IMG/VR virus record: IMGVR_UViG_3300017911_000323
Coordinates: 1 to 29,929 of that record
Strand: one strand, 5' to 3'
Length of the DNA: 29,929 bases
DNA from: a virus
Lineage: Duplodnaviria > Caudoviricetes
Under the pieces are notes generated by a model. That model ran no database searches and was not told where the DNA came from. It saw nothing but the letters and a program-made list of their open reading frames with translations. Positions 18,460 to 22,180 of this stretch are shown piece after piece. The first letter of the stretch is position 1; the number at the start of each line of letters is the position of its first letter. The translations under genes and the position numbers were made by a program.

Positions 18460-18979
18460 GTTTATCTAACAAATGGTAGCTAACATTAAACTCACCACAT
18501 ACTCCAGTGTTTATAAGGTCTTCAATAGGTACTATCAATGAGCGTGAAAAAAAATTTTTATTTTGAGCATCTACAATTCTGTATTCTTTGTTTATTACCC
18601 AGTCCATGATATAAGGAATTAACCTATCTGGATTCCAGTAAAGGACACGACTAGTTGGATATACCCAGTACATGAGAAAGTCAGGGAATGTTTTTAATGC
18701 ACATCCTATACGCTTGTCTGTATCCCCATACACTACTTGTATTTCTAATGCTACATTCCCTGTCTCCTCTGCTCTAGTGTCGGTTTTTACTTCGACATAC
18801 CTAGTGCCTAATTCTTGATTCATAATAAAGAAATCTGCACCTTTTAGTTGTTCTTCTTTAAATGCATCTCTAACTATATATTTTCTTTTACCTTCATCTG
18901 TCTGTTGTGATTCGTAGTAAGACTTAATTAGTTTCTCACCTTTCTTACCAACTTCTAGTTGTTCATCAAAATCAAACAT
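18455..18979 (-). CDS. PD-(D/E)XK restriction-endonuclease-fold protein
   Basis: GKKGE...GADF...VEVKTD...TGNVALE motif arrangement. Confidence 0.7.
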   Translation of the reverse strand: MFDFDEQLEVGKKGEKLIKSYYESQQTDEGKRKYIVRDAFKEEQLKGADFFIMNQELGTRYVEVKTDTRAEETGNVALEIQVVYGDTDKRIGCALKTFPDFLMYWVYPTSRVLYWNPDRLIPYIMDWVINKEYRIVDAQNKNFFSRSLIVPIEDLINTGVCGEFNVSYHLLDKL

Positions 18980-19274
18980 TTGGATTCTCTACTTCATACA
19001 TAGTGTAGGTTACTGTTAGTTCCTCACCAGCTTCTATAGGTCTAATTGTCCATAAAAACTTATGTCCTTCTAATTCACTTAACTTACAGTTAGGTTTGTC
19101 ACTATGATTAATAAAACCACCTAATGGTGTTCTAATTATTCTTGTACCTAATATTACATGCGTATTACCTAGGTTCGTATCTGAACCTATATGCATCATT
19201 GTAAATAAACCTAATCCATCTAAGTCACTAGGTTTAATTGTTAATCCCAATGGTAGGGGTCTATAAGTTGCCAT
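18972..19274 (-). CDS. Minimal SET-domain protein-lysine methyltransferase
   Basis: DGLGLF, FINHSDKPNC and IEAGEELTVTY SET motifs; AAGGAAGG RBS. Confidence 0.92.
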   Translation of the reverse strand: MATYRPLPLGLTIKPSDLDGLGLFTMMHIGSDTNLGNTHVILGTRIIRTPLGGFINHSDKPNCKLSELEGHKFLWTIRPIEAGEELTVTYTMYEVENPNV

Positions 19275-19425
19275 TATTACCTTCCTTTAACTTGTTATAT
19301 ATTTAGTATAGTACTATAGTTATTTTAACAGGCATCATTAACTACCTGCTCTAGGAAATAGTTTTTGAGAACAGGCGAACTTATAAAGTGGACTAGCAGG
19401 ACCATGGTAACTAGCGTTAGAGGCT

Positions 19426-19461
19426 ATTACTTCACATATTTATTTATAGGTCAAGTCGAAC
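19426..19461 (-). promoter_or_regulatory. Leftward copy of conserved element GTTYGACTTGACCTAT-N14-AGTAAT
   Basis: Inverted twin of 20108-20143; TTGACC-N17-AGTAAT spacing identical in both. Confidence 0.55.
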
Positions 19462-19605
19462 AAACATTATTGTCACTAAACTTATTTACTGGCTGGGAGG
19501 GAGTGACACAGGGCTCGCTGTACGCAAAACACACTCCAATCGTACTATAAAGAAAAGTATCTAAAATACTTTCTCTTTACTGTAAGAGTGTGCTAAAATA
19601 GGACA

Positions 19606-19689
19606 ATAGGAACGGTGGTGTAGATTAATTATCTATACCTTCCTTGATAATCACAAACGCCTGGCTACACCACCTACCTAAATCTTTTT
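19606..19689 (+). ncRNA. Candidate stand-alone small RNA with anti-SD loop
   Basis: Extended -10 TGC-TAAAAT (19591-99); stem ggtggtgtag/ctacaccacc; inner hairpin exposing tataccttcctt; T-tract downstream. Confidence 0.55.
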
Positions 19690-19983
19690 GTCCAACAATT
19701 ACCAGCAATTTTTCTAGGTGTTACATAATGATATACCCCACCCACCATGTTAAAACCCCCTATACGCACGGTGCAAACACGACACGCAATACTATACTAT
19801 TTCTTTATTTACAACTGCAATACAACGCAATCATTTGTAGACAAATGTACCGCATGTACTGTATAACTACTACTTAATCTAAACACCCTAGTAGCCTACA
19901 TTGATATCTCAATTGTTCACATGTCACTCATATGTTTCAATGGGGAACACTTATCATAACACATGGTAAATTCAAATTCCTAA

Positions 19984-20143: not shown

Positions 20144-20165
20144 TTAGTCGAGAGAAAGGAATAAC

Positions 20166-20960
20166 ATGACTAATGAACAAATAACCAATCTACTTAATCA
20201 AAGTGGATTAGAAGTATCCAATGTAACAAGTAAGTCCAAGAGTGACACACAACCTACTCAAGATATACTAGAACAGTTATCCATTGAGAAAGGACTTACT
20301 CTACAATCTAGCGTAAGTAAATCAAAAAAGACTTGGCTAGGTCGTAAGACAAAAGCGAATGCTAAGTTCAACAACCAGATTGTAGCAGTTACATTTACCT
20401 ACAAGAGAGTGCTTGGTAGCGAAGTTGGCGATACCGAAGGTGCAGAGAAAAATCGCTTTGCGCTTTACATCGACAACAAGTTCTACACTGGCGTATACTT
20501 TAAGCAACTTAGTGCTGTGAAACAGTTTGAGTTCATGCTTAAGTATAACCAAGAACTTCTTACCGATGATGCATTCTCTGCATATCACATTGGTAGCGAC
20601 TGGAAGTTGCCTACTCAATTTCTCAATGACCTTGGGAAAAACAAATGTTTGGCTTGGACTTCCAGTCATGGTGTACCAGTCATGGTGCCAACCATATTCC
20701 AATGCCAAAATTACGACAACACAAACGATATGAATGGTACACCATTCTCACGACCTAATAAAATTATGTCCAAGAATGATGCAGGCTTATCTGCTATCCA
20801 GATTGGTCAAGTCTACCAAAGTAATATCCCAGTGATGTCACCAGATAGATGGACTTCCATTACGAAGTCTATGCACGCTGGTACTACACCTTCTGTATCA
20901 CCAGATGAACAGGCATTTATCAAATACTATATGGAACTTGTTTCCAAAGTAAAAGCCTAA
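20166..20960 (+). CDS. Hypothetical protein (264 aa), monocistronic first plus-strand gene
   Basis: Strong RBS AGAAAGGA and its own terminator. Confidence 0.85.
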   Translation: MTNEQITNLLNQSGLEVSNVTSKSKSDTQPTQDILEQLSIEKGLTLQSSVSKSKKTWLGRKTKANAKFNNQIVAVTFTYKRVLGSEVGDTEGAEKNRFALYIDNKFYTGVYFKQLSAVKQFEFMLKYNQELLTDDAFSAYHIGSDWKLPTQFLNDLGKNKCLAWTSSHGVPVMVPTIFQCQNYDNTNDMNGTPFSRPNKIMSKNDAGLSAIQIGQVYQSNIPVMSPDRWTSITKSMHAGTTPSVSPDEQAFIKYYMELVSKVKA

Positions 20961-20967
20961 CCACACT

Positions 20968-21003
20968 AAAAACTCGGTACGCGTTGCGTACCGAGTTTTT
21001 TTT
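20968..21003 (+). terminator. Intrinsic (possibly bidirectional) terminator
   Basis: aaaaactcggtacgc-gtt-gcgtaccgagtttttttt. Confidence 0.93.
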
Positions 21004-21344
21004 ATGATGAGAACTAAATTAATTACAAAAAAATATACGCAATTCGTTTGCCCAATCAACACCATAGTCTGCTCTACTACACGAACTTATATTCTTAATT
21101 ACTATGTCATAGAATATAAATACTAAACACACACAACATTACAGAAAAAAAAATCTACAATAACACACATCAATAAGAATCATCTTTATGACATGTTATG
21201 TTAAAGTCTGTCAAATTTTATTTAATCATGAAAGAAATCTTGAAGGCACTGATAAAGAAAATGCTAAAGTTTTTTTATAAATTATTTTTATTTTCTTATT
21301 ACATTTTTCGTGTATGTATGCATGAGAGGAAGGAGCTAACAAAT

Positions 21345-21743
21345 ATGAAAAAGTATAGAGTATCAAATCCCCCAAGTCCTAGCCTTGCTAGTACAGGTGA
21401 GTATGTGTTACCAAGCGACAGAATACAGGGTACACAAGACTGTATATTCTGTGGCAGTTTGACAATGTCATACCGAAGGGTATGCAACAAATGTAAATGG
21501 TCTGTGTCACCTGAGCGTTTGGAAATACTCCAACGCAAACGACAAGGTCAGATAGAAGCAATGCAACAAGAACGCATTGACAAAGCTAACAAAGAGTATT
21601 CATTTGCGAGTGATAAGGTAGAGCTAGTTGATACCAGAGAAGAACGCGTATGCAGTCTGTGTTATCTGTTCTCATTCAATATGAAACAAACCTTCATGTG
21701 TTTCAGAACAGAAGTAAACATATGCACAGATTGTAAAAGATAA
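21345..21743 (+). CDS. Double Zn-finger-like protein (132 aa, start MKKYRV)
   Basis: GGAAGGAG RBS before ATG 21345; CxxC pairs CIFC/CNKC and CSLC/CTDC. Confidence 0.75.
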   Translation: MKKYRVSNPPSPSLASTGEYVLPSDRIQGTQDCIFCGSLTMSYRRVCNKCKWSVSPERLEILQRKRQGQIEAMQQERIDKANKEYSFASDKVELVDTREERVCSLCYLFSFNMKQTFMCFRTEVNICTDCKR

Positions 21744-22008
21744 GCTACTACTCCGACACGATACATCTAGACATGTGTCTCCTTTCTCATTGTCGGAGTG
21801 TAGCTAGAAGTACATGGGTGGTATTTCACACATACCACATTACACATACCACAAGCCACCTGTGTACTTCTAGCTATTCACATGAGTAAAAGCAGTTTCC
21901 CCTGTCTGTGCATTGAAAGTGTGAGTAGCGTGAAGTCTATGTGTGTACATATTAACTAATACATAACATATCTACTACAACATGTAGGCTTCACGCTACG
22001 CCAGTAGC
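21743..22008 (+). ncRNA. Array of four interlocked stem-loops (plus a terminal mini-hairpin); candidate multi-sRNA precursor
   Basis: Stems of 15, 22, 11 and 20 bp; loops 32, 32, 35 and 35 nt; TAGC/GCTA junctions shared; all 8 non-WC pairs are G-U. Confidence 0.75.
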
Positions 22009-22021
22009 AGAGAGGATATAT

Positions 22022-22180
22022 ATGGATATAGTTTGCGATAACTGTAGACAAGGCAAGATGGTCGTGACAGGAACATATGCCAATGTCAAATCATCTGTAC
22101 TCAATATGGTCAAGTGTTTCACCTGTGGGTATGGAAGTGTAAGAAAAGAAAACAACAAGAGGAGGTTACACAGTGAGTGA
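22022..22180 (+). CDS. 52-aa Zn-ribbon protein MDIVCDNC...CFTCG
   Basis: AGAGGA RBS, two CxxC; below ORF-track cutoff. Confidence 0.75.
   Translation: MDIVCDNCRQGKMVVTGTYANVKSSVLNMVKCFTCGYGSVRKENNKRRLHSE

Follow-up and report, generated by a model that had tools for sequence, protein, structure and literature searches.

The RNAIII and RsaE RNAs of S. aureus pair with Shine-Dalgarno (SD) sequences through open, pyrimidine-rich loop seeds without Hfq, phage P4 attains immunity through the pairing of its CI RNA with a leader, and T7-type RNase III processing hairpins are found in phage early mRNA between early genes. The C4 RNA of phages P1 and P7 is a structured phage RNA cut from a longer transcript, in which one loop segment lies on the ribosome-binding site (RBS) and another, acting upstream, sets the specificity, and it underlies heteroimmunity (PMC5320573, PMC12197685). 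TIGR loci in phage genomes are built of stem-loop units arranged in tandem; their loops vary, and some of their guides consist of two parts (PMC12045711). Phage non-coding RNA arrays of structured units, single units of which are gained or lost, are likewise described for UG27 (10.64898/2026.09.22.753630).

Here, we describe an array of four hairpins in a marine phage genome fragment that we call the window, by which we mean the whole stretch of 29,929 nt that was analysed (record IMGVR_UViG_3300017911_000323, Caudoviricetes, completeness ~71%). Loop 1 of this array is predicted to pair in trans with the SD and start codon of the first early gene (gene 1, 20166) and to block its translation, a reading to which we assign a probability of roughly 0.6. 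The 31 window proteins that were scanned include a terminase, a lysozyme, an amidase, a holin and a MoxR-type ATPase, and neither an integrase nor a repressor was recognised among them. The minus strand encodes the late genes, and the early genes run on the plus strand from 20166 onwards (Table 1). Annotated phage records gave no DNA match, and fold searches with the gene 1 protein ended without a match at a best Z of 3.4, which shows neither a new fold nor the absence of a known one. A hairpin similar to the terminator-like one behind gene 1 is present after this gene in 27 of the 42 phages compared. Elsewhere in the window, the non-coding stretch 19272-19980 between the divergent gene blocks is conserved at the DNA level in most relatives and is a candidate origin, packaging site or RNA, while the SET-domain gene at 18972-19274 is present in G007 and absent at the same place in L002-L004.

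One GTDB genome, that of an Actinomycetota bacterium, contains a portal relative, which sits there on a phage contig repeating after 43.9 kb, so that the host link rests on binning. The family of this genome has 65 members of 0.6-1.1 Mb, and the one genome fetched whole (G070) has 34% GC and a 16S tail ending CACCTCCTTTCT. Published descriptions of Ca. Actinomarinales fit these features (PMC7771536, PMC3747508), and the host is probably Ca. Actinomarinales-like, the name being taken from that fit. Profile searches detected RNase III in 4/4 and Hfq in 0/4 genomes of the family; the Hfq profile was PF17209, and PF01423 missed the E. coli control.

Table 1. Features of the hairpin array and of the early region around it, in window coordinates.
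Feature	Position	Strand	Remarks
Gene 1, first early gene	20166..20960	+	264 aa; without family or fold match
Predicted target at gene 1 (its leader, SD and start codon)	20146..20172	+	
Intrinsic-terminator-like hairpin	20968..21005	+	separates gene 1 from the transcript of the array
Gene 2, second early gene	21345..21743	+	CxxC-rich, 132 aa; directly 5' of the array; RBS at 21322-35 a possible secondary target
Hairpin 1	21744..21804	+	starts one base past the gene 2 stop codon
Loop 1	21759..21790	+	predicted antisense guide, with an inner hairpin and an open anti-SD tract
Open 9-nt seed	21780..21788	+	exact complement of 20152-20160, the extended SD of gene 1
Minus-strand mini-ORF	21748..21774	-	8 codons; judged a by-product of the antisense sequence
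Hairpin 2	21801..21876	+	stem of ~23 bp, CA-rich loop
Hairpin 3, module type C	21878..21924	+	AGUA/GAA internal motif, presumably loop-E-like; apical CCCUG seed, C-for-U variant
Hairpin 4, module type D	21925..21999	+	loop with UAUCUAC
Zinc-ribbon-like gene (gene 3), conserved	22022..22180	+	directly 3' of the array; anchor for collecting relatives

The four abutting hairpins (21744-21999) stand between the gene 2 stop codon (21743) and the gene 3 SD (22022). Folded as RNA, the array (21735-22015) reaches -103 kcal/mol with a z of -7.3, none of 200 shuffles being equally stable, and the z of its minus strand is -3.7. In L002, L003 and L004 the stem of hairpin 1 has another sequence and retains its pairing. 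No Rfam family matched the window at its gathering score, the sub-threshold matches being to miRNA hairpins only, with E up to 5; a scan with 14-mers of the stems returned mostly unrelated matches, and no target was found for hairpin 2. A preliminary description had read loop 1 as the antisense of a complete translation-initiation region, and the reverse complement of 21759-21790 is indeed an SD, a 5-nt spacer and ATG TCT AGA TGT; the inner hairpin that it proposed, GATACAT/ATGTGTC, is present in the minimum free energy fold and leaves UCCUUUCUCAU open, the unpaired probability being at least 0.9 at 21781-21790 and 0.6 at 21780. It had also likened the loop to the actinobacterial 16S tail, and the 16S tail in the putative host family indeed has the ending CACCTCCTTTCT given above, but this ending is not known to be specific to actinobacteria.

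Relatives were collected with the zinc-ribbon gene as an anchor. A total of 156 loci were fetched, and together with the window and L323, 79 distinct loci had at least 2 kb upstream, of which 52 passed the filters and 42 were left once duplicates had been removed. Loci were dropped when they lacked gene 2 (8), gene 1 (4) or, by the filter, an array-like region (15); L296 is among these last 15, yet an array is present there. Related phages carry their arrays at the same place, with hairpins that vary in number and order and with loop types that recur and are exchangeable: an anti-GAAAGG tract is found in 29 of the 42 arrays, type B in 22, type C in 35 and type D in 18. Anti-SD content is thus conserved in the homologous loops, as the proposal of an antisense RNA demanded. 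The plus strand folds more stably in 39/42 arrays, and the AGUA/GAA motif, which we take to be a loop E, is present in 16 of 19 type C hairpins; the strand bias and this motif together provide evidence at the RNA level. On these sequence comparisons, the array is a real, conserved RNA feature, with a modular layout that is apparently undescribed among phage antisense controls. Such arrays are not mentioned in the accessible parts of three reports (10.64898/2026.10.21.760802, 10.64898/2026.04.03.716425 and PMC5628999), where preprint supplements could hold the family; more generally, no description of the array family or of the host small RNA presented below was found in the literature covered, subscription journals and preprint supplements lying outside it. 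Some clades (L198, L202, L303, L306, L314, L318, L321 and others) have the anchor gene without an array beside it. Further plus-strand hairpins with anti-SD-like loops stand outside the array at L002:2307-2360, L006:1906-1948, L020:10437-10477 and L013:10370-10476, one of them in a late region, and hairpins of this kind were not seen at the corresponding place in the window.

Two other accounts of the hairpins turn on their strand and position. They could be RNase III processing or stabilising stems of the early mRNA, with the loops as passengers, given their long stems, a recurring basal motif, their location between early genes and the presence of RNase III in the host family; hairpins 2 and 4, in particular, are stems of ~20 bp or more between early genes, as in the T7 type. 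Such stems leave unexplained the covariation with a site 1.6 kb away described below, as well as the recurring loop types and the seed common to a host element, and we regard this account as very unlikely. Alternatively, loop 1 could be a genuine minus-strand RBS serving a short peptide or a CreT-like RNA toxin, since the minus strand carries a strong SD, an ATG and an AGA codon. In only 5 of 15 homologous loops, though, does a start codon follow the SD, and the peptides are unrelated, so that the minus-strand peptide from 21774 is not conserved; no CreT-like arrangement of conserved SD, start codon and short ORF on the transcribed strand was found in these loops. L003 has ATA in place of the start codon, tolerated only as a plus-strand G-U pair, and the better fold lies on the plus strand in all but three of the 42 arrays. 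We give this account almost no credence.

The evidence for gene 1 as the target comes from comparison between phages. Searches for exact complements showed that loops match the first early gene of their own phage, and the whole array region of each of the 42 phages was then scored against each phage's gene-1 start region, with permutation across clades; to allow for kinship, a single draw was made per clade, rather than independent pairs being taken from a tree. Self pairing exceeded non-self pairing for gene 1 with p values of 0.001 (19 clades), 0.002 (9 clades) and 0.053 (4 clades, near the floor of the test). None of six controls was significant, namely gene 2 (p 0.07-0.34), gene 3 (0.17-0.65), the array minus strand (0.16-0.62), gene-2 coding DNA, gene-1 coding DNA and DNA further upstream; a signal for gene 3 (p 0.006) was due to overlap with the last stem and was gone once this had been trimmed. 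GAAAGG marks gene 1 in 38 of the 42 phages, while GAAAGGA is rare in the start regions of the host genome G070 (10 of 1144, as delimited by our own gene calls). The bases just 5' of this shared GAAAGG core also fit the phage's own site better than the sites of other phages, with a value of 1.60 against an expectation of 0.76 for 14 clades (p 0.001) and of 1.94 against 0.94 when 8 clades are distinguished (p 0.006). In the window's clade, these bases form a block-diagonal matrix of three states, GA, ATA and GTTAAAC, each matching its own group only. Moreover, loops of unrelated sequence reach the gene-1 start in L170 (15 nt), L273 (14), L282 (13), L196 (12), L323 (11 nt), L199 (11 nt) and L228 (two segments), and the guide of L296, split and permuted around an inserted arm, still forms 22 pairs with its own gene-1 start. 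In L219-L221, a single-stranded stretch of 12-15 nt 5' of the first hairpin, as well as the loop of the last hairpin, also complements the gene-1 leader, and the type G loop of L219 has a 13-nt match to a small gene after gene 1.

A match of this kind could also arise at the DNA level, either from an inverted protein-binding site or because the loop guides a DNA-binding protein of an RNA-guided kind that went unrecognised. As the TIGR loci show, phage arrays of tandem stem-loops can serve as guides (PMC12045711), and the neighbouring proteins have no known function. The enrichment, however, is confined to the antisense orientation, no Nop, Cas or reverse transcriptase domain was recognised in the 31 window proteins, and the sequences differ completely between clades, all of which makes a DNA-level origin highly improbable.

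Within the window itself, the picture for the predicted pairing of loop 1 with gene 1 is mixed. The seed at 21780-88 pairs with 20152-60 and places CAU in register on AUG; the spacer of the loop is 3 nt shorter than that of L002/L004 and equals the spacer of the window's own gene 1. The own gene-1 site ranks 1/28 by duplex energy (-23.2 vs a mean of -14.7) and 5/28 by alignment score, and the duplex comprises 9+5+3 pairs only. When opening costs are included, the net energy of 22601 (-14.7) is better than that of 20166 (-11.8), and 21345 is close (-11.2). Across the phages, the 5' extension is lacking in 7/25 guide-site pairs, the CCTTTC tract is missing in 13/42 arrays, some of which use another guide, and in L422, a 49% gene-1 homologue that came up later, no loop of the array matches the gene-1 site. 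A comparison of all hairpins with all own start regions gave no enrichment (16 vs 12 expected), most hairpins being without a self target. In the small share of two metatranscriptomes that was covered, as contigs, none extended over loop 1.

These energies bear on the idea that loop 1 is a broad anti-SD RNA, acting as a damper on early phage mRNAs as a class (20166, 21345, 22601 and 23948) and not on one gene. Several window sites have similar net energies, 23948 carries the same 9-mer, the site at 21322-35 pairs with the window-specific end of the loop, and GAAAGG occurs in 38/42 gene-1 and 34/42 gene-2 start regions. The self-specific signal, by contrast, is significant for gene 1 only, and the guides of L323, L199 and L228 pair with leader bases outside the SD, so that we consider such a broad role unlikely. 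Both in-window sites put forward in the preliminary description, 21322-35 before the upstream gene 21345 and an exact 9-mer at 13467-75, exist. The former is at most a secondary target, its cross-phage pairing falling short of significance, and the latter has to be set aside: the start region of 13140 has the lowest raw duplex energy of the 28 window start regions (-30.2), but its site is buried, with a net of -5.3 kcal/mol, and the loop is not tracked in relatives, where the start regions of the G001 and G002 orthologues fail to match the loops of the respective phage. The core proposal of an RBS-occluding antisense RNA on the plus strand survives both of the refuting conditions named with it, while its named targets give way to 20166, the covarying site, which had gone unmentioned.

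Loop 1 might instead act mainly against an mRNA of the host, or against that of gene 1 in a different clade, its self match being secondary. On the 3' side of the seed, the loop retains bases that mismatch its own site; in the clade of the window, these fit the gene-1 site of another clade better: among 281 early leaders, the best match of the L175 loop is the L296 gene-1 site. The type C module, discussed below, also makes host-directed modules plausible. When, on the other hand, 11 loops of the same type as loop 1 (type A) were compared with the 1144 start regions of the one host genome G070, they did not converge on any single gene; the implied site is found in 0/65 host-family genomes at 1 mismatch, and a looser pattern in 5/65, like the control. 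In IMG/VR there is no exact site for the window's loop, and a pattern of the L002/L004 type has 9 matches, including those two arrays themselves. The flank, moreover, covaries with the phage's own site. A principal target in the host or in another clade is therefore, in our judgement, quite improbable. Separately, the gene-1 leaders at L168:1127 and L169:1268 hold a 15-nt complement of the type D loop of other clades, a loop of which window loop 4 is a variant form; the L168 clade alone shows this site, and type D targets in host genomes are near the control level. Together, the L175-L296 and type D-L168 matches give a hint of possible cross-clade targeting.

Hairpin 3 belongs to a different module. 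The preliminary description took its loop for a second anti-SD loop exposing UUUCCCC; this stretch is exposed, but the conserved part is CCCUG, and type C is a separate conserved module. It exposes CCCUGUU, the complement of which lies, in the host family, just 5' of genes that we take, by recognition of their sequences, to be clpX (30/30 loci), eno (28/30) and smc (30/30); ACAGGGT is conserved just upstream of these start codons in L499-L588, and a conserved upstream 7-mer is lacking in 5/6 neighbouring genes with enough loci. In a MerR-type regulator of the host, the seed complement spans the start codon. By themselves, the three seed matches are unremarkable, as 18/140 permuted 7-mers do equally well, and the ranks of smc, clpX and eno are circular because these genes were chosen by the seed. 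The window's loop 3, with C for U, fits the three leaders more poorly (ranks 30-138 of 1144). The same open seed recurs in a host intergenic element (L371:11740-11860; G070:C1 near 429,700) that has promoter-like boxes, a hairpin, an open CCCUGUUG seed and a terminator; it is present in 53/65 family genomes, the seed and a long invariant block are present in 30/30 loci, and Rfam holds no match to it. This element is a small-RNA candidate, apparently undescribed, and the predicted pairing of type C with the host smc, clpX and eno leaders is a strong lead. In G070, a MerR-type regulator and citrate synthase also carry GATTAACA beside the start codon, which is complementary to the conserved 3' segment of type B.

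Compared with the C4 RNA, the array is alike in that guide and target change together between relatives, and the two-part guides of L199, L228 and L296, which covary with the target, recall C4 further, whereas the guide of the window is a single loop. The three-stem fold of C4 contrasts with the long single hairpins of the array, and a search with the C4 sequence and structure model (three stem-loops) found no such RNA in the window. The target of C4 is the antirepressor operon of a temperate phage, while that of the array is predicted to be gene 1, for which no sequence or fold match was found; and the guide of the array is one module among 2-6 or more in tandem, unlike that of C4. By this analogy, the array is best described as working like the P1/P7 C4 RNA without being a member of its family. 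With TIGR, the phage arrays share tandem stem-loops, variable loops and some two-part guides, but the TIGR units are marked by box C/D motifs, come with a Nop-domain Tas protein and target DNA, whereas the predicted targets of the array are mRNA start regions. No box C/D motifs were recognised in our catalogue of array loops, nor a Nop-domain Tas among the 31 window proteins, of which only gene 1 was folded, in a record that is 71% complete. The UG27 units have one shared fold, a reverse transcriptase beside them and no obvious complementarity to genomes (10.64898/2026.09.22.753630); the array differs from them in having several unit types and complementarity as its main signal, and no reverse transcriptase was found among the 31 proteins of this incomplete record. 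RNAIII, RsaE and P4 CI, for their part, are single genes, in contrast to the exchangeable, polycistronic modules of the array.

A course of events can be proposed in which the array would be transcribed together with the second early gene. Given the terminator-like hairpin after gene 1, the array probably belongs to a second transcript, from which it would act in trans. Cutting or stabilisation, with host RNase III as a candidate enzyme, would then turn it into small RNAs. As no Hfq was found, the open seed would initiate the pairing, in the course of which the inner hairpin melts, and the presence of RNase III together with undetected Hfq suits a seed in an open loop. Gene 1 would be made first and turned down as the second early transcript accumulates, and once the RNA has built up, gene 1 of a superinfecting phage whose leader matches would be silenced as well. 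For the remaining modules other targets are predicted, with type C acting on the smc, clpX and eno leaders of the host by copying the seed of the host small RNA. The array is thus predicted to be a modular small-RNA cassette that likely represses the first gene of its own phage or of kin and may mimic a host regulator. A bolder version, which we advance tentatively and at somewhat less than even odds, sees in this polycistronic, exchangeable cassette a bacterial-virus counterpart of a microRNA cluster, in which the gene-1 guide, evolving fast, would double as a protein-free code of kin immunity, with some guides acting across clades, and a further, conserved module would copy the seed of a core host small RNA, apparently undescribed, to repress smc, clpX, eno and the MerR-type regulator.

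The phage has no recognisable repressor, and an RNA that tracks the gene-1 leader would give it a protein-free timing switch; if so, abundant marine phages would gain a means of excluding kin, and the natural guide-target variants lend themselves to a swap experiment. With the type C module, a candidate small-RNA regulon comes into view in a bacterium that is among the smallest free-living ones and apparently lacks Hfq, together with a phage that may copy the seed of a host small RNA; the module also supports the host assignment independently of binning.
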